Assembly: GCA_963848285.1 (NCBI GenBank)
Contig: CAWKCZ010000003.1
Coordinates: forward strand, 964,009-1,028,008
Direction: 5' to 3'
DNA from: an uncultured delta proteobacterium
Lineage (GTDB): Bacteria; Desulfobacterota; Binatia; Binatales; Binataceae
Length of the DNA: 64,000 nucleotides
The stretch's first letter is position 1; each line of letters starts with the position of its first letter. Shown here piece by piece: positions 6,506 to 62,664 of this stretch. Made by a program: the position numbers and the translations under genes. Below the pieces are notes generated by a model that searched no databases, had not been told where the DNA came from, and saw nothing but the letters and a program-made list of their open reading frames with translations.

Positions 6506-7111
6506 ATGAAGAAAGGTTGGTCGTTGGTAGCGGCGATGTTGGCCGTGGTTACGATGTTGTGGTGGTCAGCAAGCACGCCCGCGTTCGCGGCGAAAGCTCC
6601 CAGGATCGCCGCGCCCAAAAGCTTCGAGGCGGATTTCAGCTACCAGGTCGGAGGTAATCCCCCCGAGCGCGGGCGAATGTACTTTTCGCATGGGCGGATT
6701 CGCGAAGAGATAACCCCCGCAGGTGGCGGACCCAAATCGGTTACCATCATCGATCCGTTACAGAAGATGATCTACGTGCTGGATGCGGACAAGAAGAACT
6801 TCAAGCTCCTGCCATGGGATGCGCGGTCGGCGCTCATCTCGGAAGCGCTAAGGAGGTTCGAGAAGCATAAGCTGCTGGATACCAAAACGATCGAGGGGCA
6901 GGAATGCGAGCACTTTGAAATCGTCCCGCGGGACAAGAACATCAAGCCGTTCTATTTGTTCGTAAATAAGACGACGCGGTTTCCAGTTCAGCTCACCACC
7001 GTCGATCCTGATCCGTCAAAACAAATCCACCTTACCTGGAGCAACCTCACCCCCGGTTACCAGGCCGCAATTCTTTTCAATCCCCCGTTGGGATATGCCG
7101 AAGTGAAGTAG
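6506..7111 (+). CDS. secreted hypothetical protein
   Basis: A 201-aa ORF with a signal peptide (MKKGWSLVAAMLAVVTMLWWSASTPAFAA) preceded by a GGGAGGGG Shine-Dalgarno sequence. I recognise no family motif. Confidence 0.55.
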   Translation: MKKGWSLVAAMLAVVTMLWWSASTPAFAAKAPRIAAPKSFEADFSYQVGGNPPERGRMYFSHGRIREEITPAGGGPKSVTIIDPLQKMIYVLDADKKNFKLLPWDARSALISEALRRFEKHKLLDTKTIEGQECEHFEIVPRDKNIKPFYLFVNKTTRFPVQLTTVDPDPSKQIHLTWSNLTPGYQAAILFNPPLGYAEVK

Positions 7112-11708: not shown

Positions 11709-11784
11709 GGGGCAGTAGCTCAGCTGGGAGAGCACAACGTTCGCAACGTTGGGGTCGAGGGTTCAAATCCCTTCTGCTCCACCA
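11709..11784 (+). tRNA. tRNA-Ala (anticodon CGC) with encoded CCA
   Basis: A hand-folded cloverleaf: acceptor GGGGCAG/CTGCTCC with G3:U70, D arm GCTC-AGCTGGGA-GAGC, anticodon arm CAACG-TTCGCAA-CGTTG, T arm GAGGG-TTCAAAT-CCCTT, and 3' ACCA. Confidence 0.95.
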
Positions 11785-12185: not shown

Positions 12186-13941
12186 ATGAAACGAGGTCCG
12201 AAGACCGGCAAGAGCATAACGCGTGGCATTCTCAGCTTCGCCGTTGTAGCCGCTTTCCTTATGTTTACATTGGCGTCGCCCGCAACACCTGCAACGAGCC
12301 TGCGCAAGGCCGCCCAGTCGAGCATCGGAACCGCCGACGAAACCAGCGATCCGAGTACTCAACTCGTAGGTTTCTATGATGTGTCCGAGCCCGCGAGCGA
12401 GAACGGCACCGGTGCCGGCGATAATATCCTGCAGCTGATCAATACGACTTCGTCCAGCGGCGATCTGTGCGCGATGATCTACGTCTTCGACGATGATGAG
12501 GAAATGGGCGAATGCTGTGGATGCGCCCTAACCCCAAACGGAACCTTGTTGTTGTCCTTTCGCAATGATCTGACCAGCAACTGGCGCGAGGCTTCCAACG
12601 ATTTTGAAAGCGGAGTCGTCCAGATCTTATCCGCTTCTCAAAATGCGGCTCCGGCTTCTTGCCTTCCGTCCAGCGGATGCAACGGGGGATGCGATCCCAG
12701 TGTCGCCTACGTGCAAACACCGCAGCTCAACGGTAGCATCACCAGGGCAGAGCGTATCGGTGGCGCTTTTGGGTTAACCGAAACTGCGTTGAGCGACAGG
12801 GGCAGTGCCGGGGAGGAGGAACAAGGCTTCCTCACCGCGCAATGCTCCAACATCGTGCAACATGGTTCGCACAAGGGAATCTGCTCTTGCGAACCAAACC
12901 CGCCACCTCCCACCCCAACCGCGACCGCTACTCAGAGCCGCAACCGCGACCGCTTCGTCCTCGTCGACCGCCACTCAAAGTGCTACGGCAACCCAGACGG
13001 CGACCGCCACTGATACCCAGACGGCGACTGCCACTGCGACCCAGACGGCGACCGCCACCGCGACTCAGACGGCGACCGCTACCGCAACCCAGACGGCGAC
13101 CGCCACTGATACCCAGACGGCGACCGCCACCCTGACCCAAACGGCAACCACCACCGCGACCGAGACGGCGACCGCTACTGCAACCGAAACGGCTACTGCG
13201 ACCCCGACTGCAACAGCGACGGCGACTTCGCAGTTTGTAACCTCCGGCACGAGCTTCAATGTTCCGGCCGACTGGAACGACAGCAATAACACCATCGAGT
13301 GCATCGGTGCGGGAGGTGGTGGTGCTAGCACTAACGGAGCGGCCGGCGGCGGCGGTGGCGCGTATTGCAAGGCCGTCAATGTCAGCCTCACTCCCAGCGG
13401 CAGCGTTCAAATCCAGATCGGAGCTGGAGGCGCAGCACATACCGCGGGCACCGCATCCTGGTTCAACGGCACCAGCTCAACTGTAGCCTCGTGTGGGGCC
13501 GCGGGCGGGGCAGGCGGCAGCGGTGGTACGGCCGGCGCGGGTGGAACAACCGCTAACAGTATCGGAGGGACCACCTTCAAAGGCGGCAATGGTGGCAGGC
13601 ACTTGTGGAAACACTTGTGCGTCCGCGGGCGGCGGGGGAGCGGGTGGCCCCAACGGGGCAGGCGTCAATGGCGCGAGTGCTCCAAGCATTATCCTGGTGC
13701 CGGTGGCGCAGGTGATAATGGTTCCGGTGGCACCGGCGGGGTAGTAGGTGGGGGCGCTGGCGGAAATGGCACAGAATTCCAAGTCTCACCAGCCTTTGGA
13801 AGTGGAGGCGGCGGCGGCTCGGGAACGGGCAGCGCCAATGGCGGAGCCGGCGGCACTTACGGCGCGGGTGGCGGCGGCGCTGGCCATGGAGGCGGCGTAG
13901 GCAGCAACGGGCTCTGCATTGTCACGTACACGCCGCTTTAA
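12186..13941 (+). pseudogene. secreted mosaic protein: Cys-rich N-terminal domain, Thr/Ala/Gln 8-aa tandem-repeat linker, and C-terminal glycine-rich domain. The frame is broken about 3 times.
   Basis: An AGGGAGGGG Shine-Dalgarno sequence precedes the ATG at 12186, followed by a signal/anchor (ILSFAVVAAFLMFTLASPA). The N-domain has GECCGCAL, SCLPSSGCNGGCD and GICSC. A frame switch near 12938 leads into (TQTATATA)n. The C-domain reads FVTSGTSFNVPADW...IECIGAGGGGAS...GGGGGAYCK...GLCIVTYTPL. An internal stretch (~13591-13690) gives glycine-rich sequence (AGTCGNTCASAGGGGAGGPNGAGVNGASAPS) only in another frame. Confidence 0.6.
12967..13230 (+). repeat. 24-bp tandem repeat, about 11 units, consensus ACCCAGACGGCGACCGCCACYGCG, encoding TQTATATA
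   Basis: Units read directly from the sequence start at 12991, 13015, 13039, 13063, 13087, 13111, 13135, 13159, 13183 and 13207. A degenerate unit lies at 12967. Variation is mostly at third-codon positions and the last two codons. Confidence 0.9.
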
Positions 13942-51756: not shown

Positions 51757-52944
51757 CTACGCGCCCGGGAAGCCGAGAATTCGTTTCGCGATGATGTTGA
51801 GCTGGACCTCGCTGGTCCCGCCTTCGATGGAGTTGGCTTTCGAACGCAGCCACGCGCGCGCGTGAAGCCGTCGCGCGAGCGCTCGCCTTCCCATTCCAGC
51901 GCATCGGAGCCGCCGGCCGACATCGCGAGCTCCATCCGACGCTTGTTGAGCTCGGTGCCGTAGTATTTCAGCAGCGAGGAAATCGCCGGATGCGCCTGGC
52001 CGGTCTTCGCCATGTCGCCCACGCGCTCCATCGTAAGCTTGAACGCGAGCGCGTCGATTTCGTAGGTACGCGATCTGCCCGCGCAGCACGGTATCCGCGA
52101 GGACGCCGTTTTCGATGCCGACCGATTCGGCGGCGATCTGCCCGAGCGAGCGGCTCTCGGAGGTGCGGCCCATCCCGCCGATCATGTCGCGCTCATGGGT
52201 GAGCAGGTACTTGGCGATGTCCCAGCCCTTGTTCATGGTGCCGACGAGGTTTTCGCGCGGTACCGTGACGTCATCGAAAAAGGTCTGGCAGAACGGCGAC
52301 GCGCCCGAGATCAGCGTGATCGGCTTGGTCGAGACGCCCGCGCTTTCCATGTCGAACAGGACGAAGCTGATGCCCTCGTGCTTGGGCGCGTTGGGTTCGG
52401 TGCGCACCAGGCAGAAAATCCAGTCGGCCTTGTCCGCGTATGAGGTCCAGATCTTCGAGCCATTGACGATGAAGTGATCGCCCTTGCAGCTCGGCGCGGG
52501 TCTGCAGCGAGGCGAGGTCGGAGCCGGCGCCGGGTTCGGAATAGCCCTGGCACCAGCGGATTTCGCCGCGCGCGATTTTCGGCAGATGCTCCTTCTTCTG
52601 CGCCTCGTTGCCGTATTTCGAGCAGCGCGGGGCCGAGCATCCAGATGCCGAAGCTGTCGAGCGGCGAGCGGCATCCGAGCGCGGCCATTTCCTGGCGCAG
52701 GATTTTCGCCTCGTCGCGCGAGAGCCCGCCGCCGCCGTATTCGCGCGGCCATTCGGGCACCGTCCAGCCCTTGGCCGCCATGCGCTCCATCCATTGGCGT
52801 TGCGCTTCGGACTTGAATTTCGACGCGCCTGCCGCCCCAGCAGGTGTCGTCTTCGCCGAGGCGCGGGGCGTGCGCATTTCCGGGCGGGCAATTGGCCTCC
52901 AGCCACGCGCGGGTTTCTTTGCGAAAGGTTTCGAGATCGCTCAT
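51757..52944 (-). pseudogene. acyl-CoA dehydrogenase, with the frame broken at least 5 times
   Basis: The pieces are [20 protein letters not shown]; [35 protein letters not shown]; [43 protein letters not shown]; [29 protein letters not shown]...; LTMERVGDMAKTGQAHPAISSLLKYYGTELNKRRMELAMS; ANSIEGGTSEVQLNIIAKRILGFPGA. It ends 9 nt before the next ACAD start. Confidence 0.75.
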
Positions 52945-53024
52945 CGACGCGCTCCTCGTAACAATGTAGGCAACCATTATGGCGGTGGCGCGCCAACTTG
53001 GGTAGCGGAAGTTGCGGAGTGAAG

Positions 53025-53774
53025 CTAGCCGGCCTTGACCTTATGCCATGAAGCGTCGGGAGTGACTTCTTTAATGGCACTTGCGACCGACGCAGTATCC
53101 TTACCGAGGTCCTTCTCGTAAACTTGGCCGTCGGGGCCGGTCATAAAGGTCATCACGCCGGATTGGCGATAGATGGTCGGATATGCAATCACCGCGGCAC
53201 TTTTTGAGTCGGCTCCGCTGTCAATCGAAGTATACGTGTAGCCTCCGAAAGATTTAGGCTTGCCGGCCTGCGGACCGGAGGACTTTTCGCCACTCGCGGT
53301 CAACATGCAAACCTTGATAGCGTTCAGCTCGTTGCGTCCGATTTCCCGATAGCGCGTTTCCTTCTTTCCATAGACCCCGTCGAAGTACCACCCCTTATCA
53401 CTCTTAGCGAGCGGCACCGGCAGCGACCAGTTGTCAGCGCCCACGATGAGGTAGTACTTGCCGTCGGGCCCGTTGGCGAAGCGATGCATCTGCGCGTAGC
53501 GCTTGAGGAAAACCTCGACGTCGTTACGATCGGTCGCCGCGTCACCGGAACCGGCCTCGCGTACGTTGAAACCTACGATGTCGTCGAGATGGTCCCACTG
53601 CTTGGTCTTGAGCGCGTCGACCAGCGCTTGTGCGGCAGCATCGGCAGATTGGTAGACCTTCTGACTAGCTTGCTGTGCCGATGCTGGATGAGACCAAAGA
53701 AACAACGACAGGACGATCGCAGCGTTGACTAAAGCCGTAGCGCGTATCGATGAGCTATACAGTCTGAGAGTCAT
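53025..53774 (-). CDS. DUF2950-family secreted protein
   Basis: It has a signal peptide ([16 protein letters not shown]) and the family landmarks as I recall them: [34 protein letters not shown] and GQVYEKDLG. Confidence 0.8.
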
Positions 53775-53795
53775 CGGTCTTCCCCCTTCCTCGAA

Positions 53796-55058
53796 CTAGA
53801 AACGACCTCCGAAGTCACCGGAACTCCAGCGTCCGCGTGCGCTATCCGCAAAGGAACCGCCGCCGAAGCTGCCGCCGCCAAACATGCCTCCCCCGCCGGA
53901 GTTGCGAAACATGCCACCGCCGCCACCACCGAAGAGTCCACCGTCGCCACCGCCCCATCTTCCCTGGTTGGAACCGAGGTTGCTTCCCGCATCGGGATGA
54001 TCCTGATGGAAGCTATCGGCGTTTTGCTGCCAGTCGGGATGCTTTTGCGCAAAGCTTTCGTCGGTCGAACCCGGAGCACTCTCGGGATTTTGTTTGTCGG
54101 CGTCGGGATTGTTCTGCCGGTACTGGTCGACGTCCTGCTGCCCTTTCGAGTACGCGGTCGGATGGTTCTGTTCGAAATCAGGATGGTTTTTGCTGAAGTT
54201 ATCCCAGTCCTGGTTCCAGTTCTGGTTCTTCGCGGTGTTGGCCCAGTTGTTGTAGTTGGGCGTCGGATTGTCGTGATTCCAGTTCTCGTTGTTCCAGTTG
54301 TGGTAGTAGTAATTGTTAGTGTTCGAGACGTAGGTCTGATGGTTGTAGGTGACGCTGCTGCTTCCCCAGTCGCATCCCCACGCACTACTCATCATCGAGC
54401 CCATCATCATGCCGGTGGTGAAGCTCATCATGCTGGTCATCATCATCTGGCTGCTGCTGTAGCCCGGATATACCGGCATCGGAGTGCCATAGACGACGGT
54501 CGGGTTGTACTGCGGAACGTAGATCACCTGCGGGCTAGCCGGCACGATGACGATAGTCTGTCCACTCTGCGTCACCGTCTGCTGGGGCGTGGTCTTGAGG
54601 TTGCCGGCGGCCTGCGCCTTCTTGCGTAGTACCTGGATTTCCTTCAGCACCGCCTGCGGTTCGTTGTAGTAGGCGTCGCCGAGCGCCGAGGCCCACGAGA
54701 GGTTGTCGTTCATGTTGGCGAGCACGGGAGGAAACTGAGTCAGCGACTTCACGCTCGATCCCACGGCTGCTTGTCGACGGCCTCGGCGAGCGGCTTTCCG
54801 GTCAGGTCCTTGTGTTCCTGCATGAAGCGCTGGGCCTCGACGATATCGACCGGATGAGTCGAGGCAGCGAGAATTTGCGCGACCAGGGTGTCGGGGTACA
54901 GCGCAATCGGTGAGACCAGTTGTTCGAGCTCTTTGGGTGGGAGCGTTGCCGGTTGAGGCGTTCGCGACCCGCGAGCCCAGCGAGGTCGCGATTATCAGCA
55001 GCAAGGCCGACAGCCATCTCAGTGCCGACGCATTTTTGATCGAGGTCTTATGCTCCAT
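53796..55058 (-). pseudogene. DUF3300-family protein with a pair of compensating frame breaks. The ORF stays open, but the conserved N-terminal motif is out of frame.
   Basis: In the open frame, residues after the signal read as Arg-rich nonsense (PTQRARTTGLTDCAVPRHPGRANSR...). Between ~54940 and ~54755 an alternative frame reads PPKELEQLVSPIALYPDTLVAQILAASTHPVDIVEAQRFMQEHKDLTGKPLAEAVDKQPWD, the DUF3300 signature. After that the open frame resumes with SVKSLTQFPPVLANMNDNLSWASALGDAYY. The C-terminus is an N/W/H/G-rich low-complexity tail. Confidence 0.8.
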
Positions 55059-55293
55059 CTTTTGTTTGCCTGAAGGCCCCCTCACATCGGAAAATGCCAA
55101 ATTGGACTTCAGACAGCTAAATAATCTTCCGTCAGGTGAAACTCAATCAATTGGGAACCTGACGGACGCCAGATGGACGCCAGCTTAAGTCCACAAGCTG
55201 GCTCGGCATGCAGCAGCAATATGACCTCGCGATCGCGCGAAAGCGGGTTCGGCTCGCGAAGGTGCGTCGTCTCAAGGCCGCCTGAGAAGCCAG

Positions 55294-56054
55294 CTACTTT
55301 CCCTTCCAATTCGGGGGGCGCTTTTCCGCGAACGCGAGCGCGCCTTCGCGCGCGTCATCGGTGCCCACCAGCCACTTGATAGCCTTCGCGCTCGAGCTTC
55401 AGTCCTTCGACGAGCGGACGATCCAGCCCTTCGAGCGCAACCCGCTTGATGCGCTGGACTGCCAGCGGCGCGCTCTTGCAAATCTCCGTCGCGATGCTTT
55501 CGCATTTGTTCATGAGCTGGCTCATCGGCACCACGTGATCGACGAGTCCCAGGCGCAAAGCCTCCGCGGCATCGATGCGGTTGCCGGTGTAAAGCATCTC
55601 CAATGCGCGTCCCAACGGAATCAGGCGCGGCAGCCGCTGCGTGCCGCCTCCGCCGGGAAGCCATCCGAGGCGCACCTCGCCGAGGCCGAATTGCGCATGC
55701 TCGGCCGCGACCCGGATATCGCACGCGAGCGCCTGTTCGAGGCCGCCGCCATTCGCATGCCCATTGATCGCCGCGATGATCGGCTTGTGCAGTTCCAGCA
55801 TGATGGGGAACGGGGATTTCGCCGGGTCGGCGCCGCGCGCTTCGACGTAGTTGGATTTCACATCGCTGCCGGCGCTGAAGGCGCGCTCGCCCGACACCGG
55901 TCAGAATCGCGACGCGGAGGTCGGCGTCGTCGCGAAATTCTTTCCAGATGTCGGCGAGGCGGCCGTAAGCCTCGAAGTCGCAGGCATTCAGGCGCTCCGG
56001 GCGATTGATGGTGACATAGGCGACGTGGTTGCGTTTTTCGAAGAGTACTTTCAT
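55294..56054 (-). pseudogene. enoyl-CoA hydratase/isomerase (crotonase) family protein, with the frame broken twice
   Basis: The pieces are MKVLFEKRNHVAYVTINRPERLNACD...LRVAILTGV; GERAFSAGSDVK...KPIIAAINGHANGGGLEQALACDIRVAAEHAQFGLGEVRLGWLPGGGGTQRLPRL; WLVGTDDAREGALAFAEKRPPNWKGK-stop (TAG 55296-55294). Confidence 0.8.
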
Positions 56055-56114
56055 CGAGATAGCCTCATCTAATGATGCTTCCTAGCTGGTCCTCGGATGC
56101 GCGACAACAGCCAG

Positions 56115-56189
56115 CCTGCTAAGATGATGGTGCGGCGTCCTTCGGGGCGCCGTCGGCGTTTCTGACCGAAGGCGAGTTTCGAACCGATG
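56115..56189 (+). repeat. copy A of a ~60-75-nt direct repeat, containing a GC hairpin capped by a UUCG tetraloop
   Basis: CCTGCTAagATGatGGTGCGGCGTCCTTCGGGGCGCCGTCggCGTTTC...GTTTCGAACCGATG. A 22-nt core (CGGCGTCCTTCGGGGCGCCGTC, 56133-56154) is identical to 58350-58371. Confidence 0.7.
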
Positions 56190-56383
56190 TCCGGGGCATC
56201 GTGTTACACGGTGTCGGTAGAGACTGGATGGCGAATTGTTGACTGGAATGGTAGGAATTGGCCACCAGTGGATTTTCTTGATTGTCCAGGAATTGATGTT
56301 GTAACTACAGCAGCCGAATTCCGGATCAGTAATTTGGCGGCGCGCTGCTCGACCTATGGTTGAGAGGAACCTGCGACTTTCGA

Positions 56384-58267
56384 ATGGACACCACGAGCCG
56401 AGATAAAACGGCAGCATACATCGGGTTACTGTCTCTCGTCTTCACGGTTACAATTCGGACGGCATGGATATCCGATGACGCGGAAATTACGCTCCGATGC
56501 GTAATGAATTTCATTAATGGTTACGGCCCGACTTTCAATATCGACGAAAGAGTTCAAGCATATACTCATCCACTGTGGTTTCTCCTGATATCCTTCTTTA
56601 CTTTGATTTCAGGGAATGTATTCGCCGCCACGCTGGTACCTTCGATTATTTTGACACTCCTTATGGTGTGGCTTTTGTTGTCGCGGGTGGCGACAAGTTT
56701 TTGGCCCGGTATAATAGCAGGTGTCGGATTAGTGCTTTCCAAAGCGTTCATCGACTACTCCACCTCAGGTCTGGAAAACCCTCTCTCCTCGTTTCTTATA
56801 GTGGTGGGCTTTTTGCTCGGGTTCAGATGCCTTGAGTCGTTCGATCAATCTCGTTCGCCAACGATGTGCCTGACGGTGTTGATGCTGAGCTATCTCAGTA
56901 GACCGGATTTGATACTCCTCGTACTGCCGTTTTCCTTCCTGGTCCTGTGGGCCTGTTATCGCTGTCCGCGAGATACTGCGCGACTGTTGGTCATCGCCCT
57001 CGCACCCGAGGCAGTGTGGACAATCTTCAGCCTCTTCTACTATGGAGCACCGCTTCCGAATACCGCCTATGCGAAGCTAGCGCTCGGAATTCCGATCGGC
57101 GAGAGCATTCGTCAGGGTCTGACTTACCTGTTCGATTCGTTCTCGCGAGATCCAATTACCTTGACGTTCACCACTCTTGGGCTACTTCTCGCGCAGCGTC
57201 AATCGTCGTCCATTCGGGCGATCGCGGCCGGCATAGGTCTCTACCTCGCGTATATTGTTTACATTGGTGGTGACTTCATGACTGGCCGGTTCCTTACAGC
57301 TCCGCTGGTTGCGTCGGCCGTAATCCTGTCGCGCTCAATGCTTTCGAACACCGAAGCTGTGATCATCACCGTGGTTTTTGCCGCCATGGGAGTGGTGTCT
57401 TTGCCGGCTACCATCCTTAGCGGTCCTACCTACTCCGCGGCGCGTCTCACGCAAGCTGGGATTTCCGACGAGCGCGGCTATAGCTTTCCAAACCGCGGGC
57501 TCATAACGACTGCAAGGGATGCTTTCCGGCAGCCGAACTGGCCGCGAACCGACGATGTTCATTTGCTCGCCGTACAATGCGGCATGTTAGGCAATGGTGG
57601 TTTGAATACCGGCCCGGTTGAACACTGGATTGATTCTTGCGCTCTCGCCGATCCTCTGCTCGCACGGCTTCCGCCCATATATGATGGGAAGTGGAGAATT
57701 GGCCACTTTGTGCGGCAACTACCATCCGGCTATCAACAGAGTTTTCGCAAGAAGGAAAATCTTCTCGCCGATTCGGTGACACGAAACTATTGGGAGGTCA
57801 TACGGACAGCGACCCGGGGACCACTTTTCAGCCTCCGAAGACTGAGGGCCATCGCGCGCCTGAATCTGGGCATGGTAGCCAAGCCCGACTACCTGGCCTA
57901 TCGAAGCGGGCGTGTCGGGCCGCTCGTCGTCGTTCTCGCATCCTTGAGCCAGGCCCCCGTCGTCGGCGGCGACTGGAATGCTCCTTCGACCGTGCTGTTT
58001 GAAAGTTCGATCGAGGTGCGCCTGCCGACCCCCACTGTAGTCTCTTCAATCGACCTATCGCTCGATCATAACGACCAATACCTGATCGAGGATCAGAATC
58101 ACGGCGTTTATGAGCGCTTGGCCGAACTGGGGCCGGCAGACGGCCCCGGTATGAAGCGGTACCAGCTTAAACTTGATCCGCCCACGGCGCCGACCGATCG
58201 GATCAGAATCACTGCCTTAGCAGGGGACTCGCGTTATTCGCTCGGCCATTTATTCGTGAACCGTTAG
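56384..58267 (+). CDS. large polytopic membrane protein, probable GT-C-fold glycosyl/arabinosyl-transferase-like enzyme, with lower GC than its surroundings
   Basis: An intact ORF with ~12 TM segments in the first ~400 aa and a soluble C-terminal ~200 aa. It has an early loop motif, AWISDDAEITLRCVMNFINGYGPTFNIDERVQAYTHPLW (a DD-type motif after TM1, as in GT-C enzymes). Codon usage is visibly AT-richer than the neighbours. Confidence 0.6.
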   Translation: MDTTSRDKTAAYIGLLSLVFTVTIRTAWISDDAEITLRCVMNFINGYGPTFNIDERVQAYTHPLWFLLISFFTLISGNVFAATLVPSIILTLLMVWLLLSRVATSFWPGIIAGVGLVLSKAFIDYSTSGLENPLSSFLIVVGFLLGFRCLESFDQSRSPTMCLTVLMLSYLSRPDLILLVLPFSFLVLWACYRCPRDTARLLVIALAPEAVWTIFSLFYYGAPLPNTAYAKLALGIPIGESIRQGLTYLFDSFSRDPITLTFTTLGLLLAQRQSSSIRAIAAGIGLYLAYIVYIGGDFMTGRFLTAPLVASAVILSRSMLSNTEAVIITVVFAAMGVVSLPATILSGPTYSAARLTQAGISDERGYSFPNRGLITTARDAFRQPNWPRTDDVHLLAVQCGMLGNGGLNTGPVEHWIDSCALADPLLARLPPIYDGKWRIGHFVRQLPSGYQQSFRKKENLLADSVTRNYWEVIRTATRGPLFSLRRLRAIARLNLGMVAKPDYLAYRSGRVGPLVVVLASLSQAPVVGGDWNAPSTVLFESSIEVRLPTPTVVSSIDLSLDHNDQYLIEDQNHGVYERLAELGPADGPGMKRYQLKLDPPTAPTDRIRITALAGDSRYSLGHLFVNR

Positions 58268-58331
58268 TGGCGCTAGCCCGAAACACATTCTGAGGGATGT
58301 TTCACGAGTGCTAGAGCAAAAGCATCGAAAG

Positions 58332-58392
58332 CTTGCTATGGTGGTGAGGCGGCGTCCTTCGGGGCGCCGTCCTCGTTTCGGGAACGCGATGG
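58332..58392 (+). repeat. copy B of the direct repeat with the UUCG-capped hairpin
   Basis: CTTGCTATGGTGGTGAGGCGGCGTCCTTCGGGGCGCCGTCCTCGTTTCGGGAACGCGATGG. The hairpin is GGCGGCGTCC-TTCG-GGGCGCCGTC (58348-58371). It starts 65 nt after the stop of the membrane glycosyltransferase-like gene. Confidence 0.7.
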
Positions 58393-58834
58393 AAAAATGC
58401 AGCATTACCAAACGAAGCCAAATAATGCAGCAAAATGAAGGACTTTGACTTTTTGGAAAGCCAAAATAAGCCACCGAAAGCCACCGCGAACGTCCCGAGC
58501 GATGGCCGTGAGTACTCGAAGGGTCTCGAAGGCCGCGGTTATGGAAAAACAAACCCATTGTTGGCGGCGTTCAGGACGCACGAAATAATGGCGAAAGTCG
58601 CGGTCGGCTGTACATCAAAAATGAGAAAACAAACCCATTCATATGAGGCCGATTCGCTCTCGAAGCGCAAAAACAAAGCCACTTCTTCGATGCCATTAGA
58701 CATGACATTCGGCCATAATCATTGTCATTGCGACACAGAGGACAACATGCGCGCGGGCTTTTCGGCAATTCCTGAGTAGGCTATCTAAATATCAATCGAA
58801 CGGTCGCATAGCTTGATTTGGAGGGTTTTACCCG

Positions 58835-59750
58835 TTGCACGAAATTAATTACGAAGTCCCAACCTCCGTCGCCCAGGCGGTGACGATGCTAAAACGCCAT
58901 GGCGAAAAGGCGCGCCCGTTTGTGGGAGGCACCGATCTTCTCATCCAACTGCGCGCCGGCGTGCCTTCCGGGCACAGTGAAGAATTTCGCCCCACTGCCG
59001 CGGTGCGACGCCCCGAGTTCGTCGTCGACCTCAAGCACATCAAGGAGCTGCGCCAGATTAAGTTCGATGCCAAGAAAGGGCTGCGGCTGGGCGCGGCCGT
59101 TCCCTGCATCGAGGTCTACGAGAGCGAGGTGATGCGCAAGAATTACCCCGGCCTGACCGAGGCCGCGCATCTCATCGGCTCGCTGCAGATCCAGAACCGC
59201 GCGTCGGTGGGTGGCAATCTATGCAATGGTTCGCCCGCGGCCGATACGACGCCCGCGCTGATCGCGCTTGGCGCCAAAGCACGCATCGCGGGCGGGAAAG
59301 CAATCCGCGAAGTCCCGGTTGAGGACTTCATCCTGTCGCCCGGCCGCACCGTCCTGAAGCCCGGCGAAATCGTGGTGGAACTTGCGATTCCCGCGCCGAA
59401 GCCGCATTCGTCCGATGCGTATCTGCGCTTCATCCCGCGCAACGAAATGGATATCGCGGTGGTCGGAGTCGGCACCTCTCTTACCTTGGAGGGCGATACG
59501 GTCAAGGCGGCGCGCATCGCGCTCGGCGCAGTCGGCCCGACGCCGATTTTCGCCAAGGCGGCGAGCGATTCGCTGATCGGCAAGACGCTCGGACAGCGCC
59601 ACGATCGAGGCCGCGGCACAACTCGCGATGGAAGCCGCGACCCCGATCGACGACATGCGCGGGACCGCCGAATTTCGCAAGCACGTAACCGGCGTTCTGA
59701 CCCGGCGCACCATTCAAATCGCCGCCGAGCGCGCGCGCAACAAACAGTAG
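58835..59750 (+). pseudogene. molybdenum hydroxylase medium (FAD-binding, CoxM/XdhB-like) subunit, with the frame broken once
   Basis: A TTG start follows a GGAGGG Shine-Dalgarno sequence. The ORF contains VGGTDLLIQLRAG, IQNRASVGGNLCNGSPAADTTPALIALGA and LRFIPRNEMDIAVVGV. Shifting near 59595 gives SATIEAAAQLAMEAATPIDDMRGTAEFRKHVTGVLTRR, with the stop at 59748-59750. Confidence 0.8.
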
Positions 59751-59764
59751 GGAATCGATACACA

Positions 59765-60284
<520 letters not shown>

Positions 60285-60368
60285 ACCACGCACGCTGCGC
60301 GCGATGGCGTCACCGAATACGAACCTCGCAAGACAAGTTAAAGGCTTCCCAAACAGGGAGATTTGAGC

Positions 60369-62664
60369 ATGGCAGAATCAAAGAACAATACAAGGTCATC
60401 GGAACCCGCCCGATTCGTCACGATGGCATCGACAAGGTTACCGGCCGCGCCAAGTACGGCGCCGACTATGCCTTCCCGGGCATGCTGTTCGGCAAGGTGC
60501 TGCGCAGCCCGCATGCTCACGCGATCATCAAGTCGATCAACGTCGAGAAGGCGCTCGCGATGCCGGGCGTCAAGGCGATCGTGACCTCGGCGGATCTTCC
60601 CGAGGCCGAGGACAAGGTCGAGCAGGTCGGCGAAGCGGCGATGAACCCGCGCTACCTCTCGATGAACATCCTCGCGCATCAGAAGGCGCTCTACGATGGG
60701 CATGCGATCGCGGCGGTCGCCGCGACCAGCCCGCATATCGCGGAAGAGGCGCTGCGCCTCATCGAGGTGGACTACGAAGTTCTGCCGCCGGTGATGACGG
60801 TGGACGACGCGATGAAGAAGAACGCGCCGGTCCTGCTGCCGAACCTGCGCAACAAGGAAGAGGGCGACAACCCGACCAACGTCGCGAGCCATCTGCAGTT
60901 CAAGCGCGGCGATGTCGCAGCCGGCTTCGCAGCGGCCGATTTCGTCGTCGAGCGCGAGTTCCACACCGCGATGGTCCATCAGGGATACATCGAGCCGCAC
61001 AACGCGGTCGGCATGTACAACTCCGACGGCCAGGCAACGATCTATTGCTCGACCCAGGGCGCCTTCGATGTGCGCTCGATGTGCGCGCAGGTGCTGGGAG
61101 TGTCGGTCGGCAAGATCAAGGTCGTGCCGGCGGAAATCGGCGGCGGCTTCGGCGGCAAGACCACCATCTACCTCGAACCGCTCTCGCTGATGCTGTCGAA
61201 GAAGACCGGCCATCCGGTGAAGCTGGTGATGACTCGCGGCGAAGTGCTGCGCGCCAGCGGCCCGACCTCGGGCTCCAGGATCAAAATCAAGATGGGATGC
61301 ACCCGCGACGGCAAGATCACCGGCGCGGAAGTCTGGCTGGCATACGAGGCGGGCGCGTTTCCGGGCTCGCCGGTCGGCGCCGGCGCGATGACGCTGCTGG
61401 CTCCCTACAACATCGACAATTTCCAGATCGACGGTTACGACGTGGTCGTCAATCGGCCCAAGACCGCGGCCTATCGGGCGCCGGGCGCGACCAACGCGGC
61501 CTTGGCGTCGGAAACCGTGATCGACGAGCTGGCCGAGAAATGCGGAATGGATCCGATCGACTTCCGCATCGCCAACGCGGCCAAGGAAGGAACTCCTCAG
61601 ATTGTCGGACCTCCCTACAAACGGATCGGCTTCATCGAAACCATCGAGGCAATCAAGAACAGCCCTCATTATAAGAGCGAGCTGAAGGGCCCCAATCGCG
61701 GGCGCGGAATGGCGGCCGGGTTCTGGTTCAACGCCGGGCATGCAGTCGTCGGCGACCGTGAACATCCAGACCGACGGCACCGCCAGCGTCGTCACCGGCT
61801 CGACCGATATCGGCGGCTCGCGCGCCGCGATGGCGATGATCACCGCCGAAGTCCTCGGCCTCGGATGTCACCGACGTGCGCCCGGTCGGTGGCGGATACC
61901 GATTCGATCGGCCATACCGACGTGACCGGCGGCAGCCGCGTGACCTTCGCCACCGGGATGGCGGTTTACAACGCCGCCCAGGATGCGCTGCGCAGTTGAA
62001 GGAGCGCGCCGCGAAGACCTGGGAGAAGAAGCCCGAAGACGTGAAGTTCGAGGACGGCAAGTTCTCAGCGCCGAGGGCGAAGGCATCAAGCCGATGAACG
62101 TGAAGCAGCTCGCCAGCCGGCTCGCGCGCACCGGCGGCCCCATCACCGGACGCGCGCAGGTCAGCACCGGCGGCATCGGCGTCGGTCCCGCATTCGCGGC
62201 CACGCTGGTCGACGTCGAAGTCGATCCCGATACCGGCAAGGTGCAGGTCCTGCGCTGCACGATCGCGCAGGACGCCGGCAAGGCGATTCATCCCAGCTAC
62301 GTCGAAGGCCAGATGCAGGGCGGCACCTCGCAGGGCCTCGGATGGGCGCTCAACGAGGAATATTTCTACGATGCGAAAGGCACGCTGCGTAACACCGGAT
62401 TGCTCGACTATCGGATGCCGACCTGCCTCGACCTGCCGATGATCGAGACGGCGATCGTCGAGATTCCCGAACCCGATTCATCCGCTGGGAGTGCGCGGCG
62501 TCGGCGAGGTTTCGATCGTGCCGCCTCCCGCGGCGGTCGCCAACGCGATCTATCGCGCGACCGGAGTGCGGATGACGGAACTGCCGATGTCACCTCCGAG
62601 GGTGCTCAAGGCGATTCTCGAAAACCGCCGCACGCATGACCTGCAGGCTGCGGCGGCTGACTGA
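60369..62664 (+). pseudogene. molybdenum hydroxylase large (molybdopterin-binding, xanthine dehydrogenase family) subunit, with the frame broken about 7 times
   Basis: A GGGAGA Shine-Dalgarno sequence precedes the ATG at 60369 (MAES). The pieces are KEQYKVIGTRPIRHDGIDKVTGRAKYGADY...; QGYIEPHNAV; IGGGFGGK; TAAYRAPGATNAALASE; QSSATVNIQTDGTASVVTGSTDIGGS; VADTDSIGHTDVTGGSRVTF; QLKERAAKTWEKKPEDV; FAATLVDVEVDPDTGKVQVLR...AIHPSYVEGQMQGG; PIHPLGVRGVGEVSIVPPPAAVANAIY. Breaks lie near 60378, 61738, 61862, 61890, 61995, 62070 and 62475. Confidence 0.85.

Follow-up and report, generated by a model that had tools for sequence, protein, structure and literature searches.

A single-gene segment inserted at a dispersed hairpin element between a crotonase gene and a molybdenum hydroxylase operon of an uncultured member of the Binataceae

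The window analysed here comprises 64,000 nucleotides (nt) of an uncultured delta proteobacterium from soil, a member of the Binataceae (assembly GCA_963848285.1, contig CAWKCZ010000003.1, positions 964,009 to 1,028,008 of the forward strand); coordinates without a locus name refer to this window. A 2.2-kb segment with a single gene, predicted to encode a membrane glycosyltransferase, is inserted in the divergent crotonase/coxMSL intergenic region, exactly at a resident hairpin element. The element pre-existed at the site, and after the insertion one copy of it (copies A and B) is situated on each side of the segment. From left to right, the locus consists of the following features:

56096..56108, + strand: resident left flank GATGCGCGACAAC, an identical 13-mer in L106, L109, and L115
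56109..56167, + strand: element copy A, which aligns to L109 6265-6323
56168..56383, + strand: insert-specific 5' non-coding region, GC content 0.52, similar to no fetched locus
56384..58267, + strand: predicted AftB-like GT-C membrane glycosyltransferase gene, the cargo of the insert, an intact open reading frame (ORF) of 627 amino acids (aa)
58268..58325, + strand: insert-specific 3' non-coding region, similar to no fetched locus
58326..58384, + strand: element copy B; window 58326-58453 aligns to L109 6265-6392, L106 9577-9704, and L115

The insertion is documented by empty sites in five relatives, which are labelled Candidatus Binataceae and whose CoxM-like proteins are 86-92% identical to that of the window. 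In L106 and L109 the crotonase gene (- strand) adjoins coxM (+ strand) with 480-540 nt between them and no glycosyltransferase gene. Crotonase and coxM genes are likewise adjacent without a glycosyltransferase gene in L115 and L121; L110 agrees with them up to the point where its contig stops. The flanking genes share about 89% DNA identity with the window, and every empty site contains exactly one copy of the element. At the left junction, window and empty sites correspond over GATGCGCGACAAC and copy A and diverge thereafter; at the right junction the window is unrelated to them until just before copy B and then tracks them through ATTACCAAACGAAGCCAAATAA and beyond. In blastn alignments, L109 6232-6323 corresponds to window 56076-56167 and L109 6265-6392 to window 58326-58453, thus 59 nt of the empty site are present twice in the window. 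The spacing of 17 nt between GATGCG and the TAnnnT box is kept at copy A, and the hairpin of copy B is followed by ATTACC at a distance of 33 nt, the same as in L106 and L115. The original prediction, made from the window sequence, had inferred an inserted gene, and this is borne out by the five relatives and by the repeats, which lie exactly at the boundaries.

Within positions 55900-58600, a repeat search returned a single two-copy direct repeat family (56113-56162 and 58330-58379) of 50 nt and 84% identity, 2217 nt apart and both on the + strand. Its identical core of 24 nt, GGCGGCGTCCTTCGGGGCGCCGTC, was found only at 56131-56154 and 58348-58371 with up to three mismatches allowed, and two core matches occurred in 0 of 100 shuffles. 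In the whole window, the covariance model of the element family, run with filters off, recovered copies A and B and no others. The predicted fold of the core is a stem of nine perfect base pairs around the 4-nt loop UUCG, GCGGCGUCC-UUCG-GGGCGCCGU, and outside the core the arms of the two copies are similar too, with 13 of 19 nt upstream identical. Copy A reads TGCTAAGAT (56117-56125, resembling an extended -10 element), hairpin (56132-56153), and CGGCGTTTC; copy B reads TGCTATGGT (58334-58342), hairpin (58349-58370), and CCTCGTTTC, and runs straight into the resident right flank. GATGCG of the left flank, which is also part of the family consensus, is located 17 nt upstream of the TAnnnT box and thereby in the position of a -35 element. 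Same-strand repeats around an intact gene had been described before, and both the repeat search with its shuffles and the unbroken ORF 56384-58267 agree with this. The repeats themselves therefore stand; their previously given size of 61-75 nt does not, as the empty site of L109 sets the duplicated stretch to about 59 nt (56109-56167 and 58326-58384). An insertion of about 18 nt, formerly assumed inside copy A, is not needed, and none of the relatives has anything that corresponds to copy A past approximately 56167.

The product of the inserted gene is, judged by sequence comparison, an AftB-like GT-C enzyme of the predicted polyprenyl-phosphate-sugar type and no AftB equivalog. Pfam gave no match for the 627-aa protein. 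NCBIfam model NF041481 (terminal beta-(1->2)-arabinofuranosyltransferase) matches residues 25-251 with E = 1.8e-20, at a score of 72.5 bits versus an equivalog cut-off of 1050 bits and thus far below the equivalog level. The sole meaningful match among solved structures is AftB of Mycobacterium chubuense (PDB 9dlf, E = 8e-18), to which three collinear stretches align, with D31-D32 of the query opposite D61-D62 of the chain (DD motif). These alignments comprise the N-terminal transmembrane module with the DD motif as well as the later GGDFMxGR and RIGH stretches. According to the AftB structure paper (PMC12041299), D62 of the DD motif is the conserved catalytic aspartate of GT-CA enzymes. The earlier label of a membrane glycosyltransferase-like gene is well supported by the match to 9dlf and the kept DD motif. 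More than 6000 homologues are present in the protein collection, and many of them, from Binatus, Burkholderiales, and other groups, carry the JGI label arabinofuranosyltransferase. The dN/dS values of 0.21 against a 72% identical and 0.12 against a 63% identical homologue indicate that the gene is under purifying selection.

The closest homologues (P0002 with 72%, P0003 and P0005 with 63% identity) are situated in three unrelated neighbourhoods, and apart from the window's own protein no database protein is more than 72% identical. At the homologue loci L001-L003 the gene lacks flanking copies of the element: the covariance model matched nothing there, and all repeats seen around the gene were short chance matches. 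In one relative (L003 8790-9974 and L004 102-1286), a 394-aa paralogue of the N-terminal transmembrane module, with 47% identity to residues 1-388, is encoded directly before the glycosyltransferase homologue.

With a GC content of 0.55 and 0.61 at third codon positions, the glycosyltransferase gene lies below the means of the long ORFs of the window (0.613 +/- 0.028 and 0.708 +/- 0.057). It had been regarded as the only AT-richer coding region and its composition as a mark of foreign origin. Neither holds: ORF 6506-7111 likewise has a GC content of 0.55, and the homologues have 0.52-0.55 versus 0.61-0.62 for their flanks in every relative examined. Low GC is therefore a trait of this glycosyltransferase family and no evidence of recent transfer.

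The element belongs to a low-copy, lineage-wide, previously undescribed family of intergenic elements of the Binataceae. Two metagenome-assembled genomes labelled uncultured delta proteobacterium (L072 and L074), found by a scan for the hairpin, share the flanks of the element as well as the hairpin, and the L072 contig (4.34 Mb) additionally carries an 85% identical CoxM homologue. A metagenome scan, which demanded TGMTA 10-12 nt upstream of the hairpin and left the last T of the box free, added 11 further loci. In the resulting alignment of 18 instances from about 10 unrelated loci, TGnTAnnnT is invariant (18 of 18) and situated 6-8 nt before the stem, the majority consensus places GATGCG 17 nt upstream of TAnnnT, and a short run of T is located 4-5 nt behind the stem. 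The family layout is thus GATGCG, 17 nt, TGnTAnnnT, 6-8 nt, the hairpin GCGGCGYCC-UUCG-GGRCGCCGU, and a short T run. The stem is paired in 100% of the family without double-sided changes; since the search pattern itself fixed the stem, this is uninformative on RNA versus DNA function.

Members of the family are located after the PPDK gene (L072 and L120), after an ABC1 kinase gene (L074), after a response regulator gene (L119), before an amidohydrolase gene (L113), and in the crotonase/coxM spacer. At eight loci, the stop codon of an ORF in the same orientation lies 18-55 nt upstream of the element. Density is low, with two copies in the 64-kb window and zero or one per related locus of 20 kb according to the covariance model, which gave no match in L001-L003, L107, and L122; a chance pairing of two elements at a distance of 2.2 kb is therefore unlikely. 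Rfam contains no match to the element or to the intergenic arrays described below, either at gathering thresholds for the whole window or at E <= 5 for 56000-58900. In the viral collection, neither a relative of the glycosyltransferase gene nor a copy of the element was found.

Compared position by position, copy A is identical to the elements of L113 and L114 at 45 of 49 positions, to copy B at 40 of 49, and to the orthologous resident copies at 30-38 of 49. To the L113 element, which stems from an unrelated locus, the identity is 97.8% over 45 nt. Hence copies A and B are no closer to one another than to copies at other loci, and the likeness of copy A to L113 and L114 is consistent with an imported family member.

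Most instances are followed, 25-35 nt downstream, by a 'AAACAAACCCAC' motif of the form GAAA(A)TGCAAAAACAAACCCAYTAA or the variant ATTACCAAACGAAGCCAAATAA, which is missing after copy A, after L116, and after the left copy of L119. Arrays of this motif of about 22 nt, (G)AAA(A)TGCAAAAACAAACCCAYTAA or ATTACCAAACGAAGCCAAATAA, were observed only in intergenic regions that hold the hairpin element, e.g., also at L121 3980-4660, L107 2757-3029 (- strand), and L109 6349 and 6470. L121 contains about seven motif copies and an internal tandem duplication of about 250 nt. Between motif copies, some 65 conserved nt could form two small hairpins with a few compensatory changes, a fold weakly supported by four sequences. 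A reading of the 'AAACAAACCCAC' region as a small ORF was rejected, the frames being inconsistent between loci. Furthermore, downstream of the 72% homologue in L001 (7775-7860, - strand), TGCTATGAA is followed after about 25 nt by the hairpin GGTCCC-GGAA-GGGACC, a similar layout with another stem. This hints at 'TGCTAnnnT plus hairpin' being a more general design in the lineage than the strict family model detects.

The bare hairpin has a far wider distribution. When 185,579 species genomes, a set of representatives that does not include the source genome, were scanned for the hairpin core (23 nt), 101 stretches were detected in about 100 unrelated genomes from Pseudomonas to Streptomyces, with one copy per genome. 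A T-rich tail as in an ordinary intrinsic terminator follows in 38 of 100, and the TGnTAnnnT box accompanies two of 100 identical hairpins, namely those of L072 and L074, both family members, and is absent from the other 98. Due to this recurrence, the identical core is, taken by itself, to be regarded as an attractor sequence which says little on common descent. A private att site or cassette signature, as the original prediction had it, is not what the repeats represent, given the full element at about 10 unrelated Binataceae loci and the hairpin in about 100 genomes. A search for further copies of core and element had been proposed, with a dispersed intergenic repeat as the finding that would speak against a cassette, and a dispersed intergenic repeat is what emerged. 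The att/cassette reading is nevertheless partly supported: the element is dispersed, yet the empty sites show that it marks the boundaries of an insertion.

TGnTAnnnT, present in all family members, corresponds to the extended -10 consensus motif of sigma-70 promoters. If this motif is active, the hairpin would sit at the 5' end of the transcript. The usual location closely behind a stop codon and the T run point to a terminator, although the U run comprises only 3-5 nt and starts 4-5 nt off the strong stem, and a simple terminator scan calls neither copy A nor copy B. The element may be both promoter and terminator. Each copy may thus supply a promoter-like or terminator-like unit, copy A before the new gene and copy B still before coxMSL.

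A second element-bracketed insertion was observed in L119 (JGI Ga0182018_10084695, 1877 nt), where two copies of the element occur 1295 nt apart. The direct repeats are longer here, about 255 nt with approximately 90% identity and indels, and extend from the 3' end of a response regulator gene across the hairpin and about 45 nt beyond it. Between them lies an insert of 1.05 kb with 46-48% GC and two ORFs on the opposite strand without assigned function. The left copy of the response regulator gene is intact, and the right one is a frameshifted fragment. Both the length of these repeats and their end points relative to the hairpin, which are unlike those of the window, argue against a fixed crossover site. 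Repeats of 59 nt in the window versus 255 nt in L119 fit a homology-dependent Campbell-type integration better than a fixed-site recombinase.

Apart from the glycosyltransferase ORF, the insert contains no second gene, and there are no terminal inverted repeats at its ends. No tRNA target is located nearby, the only tRNA of the window being situated at 11709. Among the approximately 45 window ORFs submitted to Pfam, none matched an integrase or transposase family, and for intI no Phage_integrase match was obtained; the ORFs were assigned to housekeeping and metabolic families (MreC, SurA-like chaperone, AcrB, PQQ dehydrogenase, acyl-CoA dehydrogenases, and others) or to none. The earlier statement that the 2.3-kb interval contains neither integrase nor transposase is correct, since the glycosyltransferase ORF is alone inside. 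An integron attC site was considered and rejected: the GTTRRRY and RYYYAAC cores are absent, the copies reading GTTTCTG and GTTTCGG, and the fold, with nine perfect base pairs around a loop of 4 nt, is not an imperfect palindrome of 57-141 nt. An insertion sequence (IS) or miniature inverted-repeat transposable element (MITE) was also rejected (no terminal inverted repeats at the insert, no transposase, a duplicated stretch of 59 nt), and sigma-54, integration host factor (IHF), attC, and dif-like motifs, compared by eye with consensus sequences, do not fit either.

The genes next to the site and the resident intergenic region are given by:

55272..56054, - strand: crotonase (enoyl-CoA hydratase) gene, left neighbour, split by a frameshift (Pfam ECH_1)
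58385..58834, + strand: resident low-GC (0.48) intergenic region upstream of coxM, homologous to the corresponding region in L106, L109, L115, and L121
58835..59941, + strand: gene of the CoxM-like FAD-binding subunit, first gene of the molybdenum hydroxylase operon, right neighbour (Pfam FAD_binding_5 and CO_deh_flav_C)

In case of the crotonase, the ECH_1 match comprises residues 1-57 in one frame and the remainder in ORF 55355-55897, and the protein is 94-96% identical to the intact orthologues of L106, L109, L110, and L115. The CoxM-like gene is frameshifted after about residue 252, and residues 1-252 are 91-92% identical to L106 and L115. Besides crotonase and coxM, coxL (60104-62639, + strand) and an acyl-CoA dehydrogenase gene (51757-52977, - strand) are split by frameshifts versus intact orthologues, and the same gene fragmentation was found in L108 and L109, from the same ENA project. 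The frameshifts are probably long-read assembly errors and not pseudogenes. The region 58385-58834 contains four copies of the motif A[AG]AC[AG]AA[CG]CCA, with starts at 58410, 58547, 58627, and 58671.

The acyl-CoA dehydrogenase/crotonase/coxM neighbourhood is variable, with an antitoxin-like gene in L106, an HTH_3 gene in L109, an APH kinase gene in L122, and a luciferase-like gene in L107. In the window, a DUF2950 gene (53025-53774, - strand) and a DUF3300 gene (53796-55100, - strand) are situated between the acyl-CoA dehydrogenase and crotonase genes (52956-55295); this pair is absent from L106, L109, and L121 and has no flanking direct repeat. Elsewhere in the window, 12934-13245 consists of a tandem repeat with a period of 12/24 nt (10 overlapping copies of a 120-nt unit) within an ORF with a weak glycine-rich match (PF21722, E = 1.6e-4).

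As to the mechanism, the favoured reading is that recombination joined the segment to the site, the partners being the resident element, or a part of it, and a family member on the incoming DNA. We consider this reading about equally likely to be right or wrong. The incoming DNA would have carried its own member of the element family, and the simplest geometry would be a circular intermediate with a single Campbell-type crossover inside the identical 24-nt hairpin core, without a recombinase encoded in cis for the join. A crossover in the core would explain the kept spacing of GATGCG at copy A together with that of ATTACC at copy B.

Several points weigh against recombination at the element. 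The arms are too diverged to place the crossover, and three scenarios explain the copies about equally well: import of the whole of copy A, import of the whole of copy B, or a hybrid nature of both. The origin of the arms is unassignable because orthologous resident copies differ mutually as much as from copy A or B. An identity of 24 nt is at the lower limit for RecA-type recombination. The homologues in L001-L003 lack element flanks, and no donor configuration was found. The direction, a gain here versus a loss in the relatives, rests on parsimony only, and the glycosyltransferase segment might, formally, be an artefact of the metagenome assembly. Moreover, the promoter and terminator roles are deduced from sequence alone, and the terminator scan calls neither copy.

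Alternatively, the element had no part in the mechanism, and the gene together with its own upstream copy A was inserted upstream of resident copy B by an illegitimate or microhomology-mediated event. The junctions would then be 56108/56109 and 58325/58326, and elements of this type would merely sit at gene boundaries in the lineage. This course of events is possible, if on the unlikely side. It agrees with the whole of copy A, both arms included, being closest to the L113/L114 elements, and with gains and losses of genes without repeats in the neighbourhood (the DUF2950/DUF3300 pair and the other neighbours in L107 and L122). The 8-nt block before TGCTA also points this way, as CGAAAGCT in copy B is like the resident CGGAAGTT and copy A has AGCCAGCC, but the block varies among orthologous resident copies too (GGCGGGCG in L110). 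Furthermore, the exact 17-nt spacing of GATGCG to TAnnnT at copy A would be a coincidence, the insertion is located exactly on an element as rare as two per 64 kb, and L119 contains a second insertion bracketed by the element.

A site-specific recombinase acting in trans on a cis-mobilisable, integron-like or Xer-type unit, with the hairpin core as the crossover site and copies A and B as true attL and attR, is quite unlikely. The palindromic core, identical at both ends of the insert and represented by one copy at the empty site, is what such a system would leave, and the element, kept at many loci, could serve as a source of secondary att sites. However, no recombinase is encoded in the insert or among the window ORFs scanned, and the attC motifs are absent. 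Tyrosine recombinase sites usually have a central spacer of 6-8 nt, and here the central spacer is 4 nt. The 255-nt repeats of L119 end elsewhere relative to the hairpin, a misfit with a fixed crossover, and the arms outside the core are similar, unlike those of typical attP/attB pairs.

It is highly doubtful that the gene and two elements are ancestral and that the five relatives lost the gene by direct-repeat recombination, each retaining one hybrid copy. Direct repeats of 50-59 nt with an identical 24-nt core are indeed substrates for deletion, and the event is unrooted. The gene is, however, missing in all five relatives, which span CoxM identities of 86-92%, no other database protein is more than 72% identical, the closest homologues are found in unrelated neighbourhoods, and none of the fetched loci contains anything similar to the non-coding parts of the insert. 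A chance or convergent likeness of two GC-rich terminator hairpins is extremely improbable: the same 23-nt hairpin does recur in the 101 stretches of about 100 unrelated genomes, with a T-rich tail in 38 of 100, but in the window the flanks match too (13 of 19 nt upstream and the invariant TGnTAnnnT), the box occurs only in the two Binataceae family members among the 100 identical hairpins of the scan, and both copies align to the single copy of the empty site, which contradicts this explanation.

Returning to recombination at the element, it is tempting to speculate that the hairpin element is the recombination site of an undescribed gene-shuffling system of the Binataceae without a recombinase in cis, of which the insertions in the window and in L119 would be independent products. 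We consider this generalization unlikely. Genes or segments bracketed by elements would be excised as circles and reinserted at other copies of the element, carrying the promoter/terminator unit with them.

A perfect repeat core of 22-24 nt can be a generic terminator-type hairpin which recurs across phyla. Neither such a core nor a low GC content typical for the gene family shows horizontal transfer by itself; the empty sites of relatives do. With five empty sites, the locus documents the gain of a predicted envelope-modifying GT-C glycosyltransferase by an uncultured phylum (Binatota) at a variable spot. It also reveals an undescribed family of intergenic repeats of the Binataceae with promoter-like and terminator-like features and associated 'AAACAAACCCAC' arrays. 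If the element does mediate insertions, genes could be moved in a simple manner with no dedicated recombinase in cis, comparable to the rearrangements mediated by repetitive extragenic palindromes (REP) and bacterial interspersed mosaic elements (BIME).

Among known systems, the encoded enzyme is best compared to mycobacterial AftB (GT-C, subclass GT-CA), with which it shares the N-terminal module, the DD motif, and the GGDFMxGR and RIGH stretches. It differs in its score of 72 bits versus the 1050-bit cut-off and in its host, a Gram-negative-type member of the Binataceae, and is a prediction from sequence. With regard to the locus, islets flanked by attL and attR, including cis-mobilisable elements without an integrase, resemble it in the discrete insert, in direct repeats that share an identical core, in the one copy which relatives have at the empty site, and in the accessory cell-envelope cargo. 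In contrast to them, no integrase is present in cis or was seen among the ORFs scanned in the 64 kb, the target is no tRNA gene, the repeat is a dispersed lineage-wide element with arms similar besides the core, and the junctions of L119 differ. Integron cassettes (ORF plus attC) likewise combine a single ORF with hairpin elements in direct orientation on both sides and no recombinase inside, but R' and R'' cores, extrahelical bases, and a palindrome of 57-141 nt are lacking here, no intI was found among the window ORFs scanned and no attI either, and the element is situated upstream of the ORF with a promoter-like appearance.

The dispersed extragenic palindromes of the REP/BIME type are hot spots of recombination and insertion in enterobacteria. 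The element resembles them in being a GC-rich hairpin outside genes, mostly located 18-55 nt behind a stop codon of the same orientation, in its mosaic with 'AAACAAACCCAC' arrays, and in its tie to duplication and insertion events, whereas its copies are far fewer (two in 64 kb), TGnTAnnnT is invariant upstream, and the lineage (Binatota) is unrelated. A Campbell-type single crossover of circular DNA would place the shared segment in direct orientation at either end of the insert, each copy potentially hybrid, with a repeat length equal to the shared homology, as is seen with 59 nt here and 255 nt in L119. It differs from the usual case by the very short homology, with 84% identity outside the 24-nt core, and no circular form or donor was observed. 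Taken together, the locus is a repeat-flanked islet of a known kind at a variable spot, to which the Binataceae element family and its possible role in gene shuffling are the new points.

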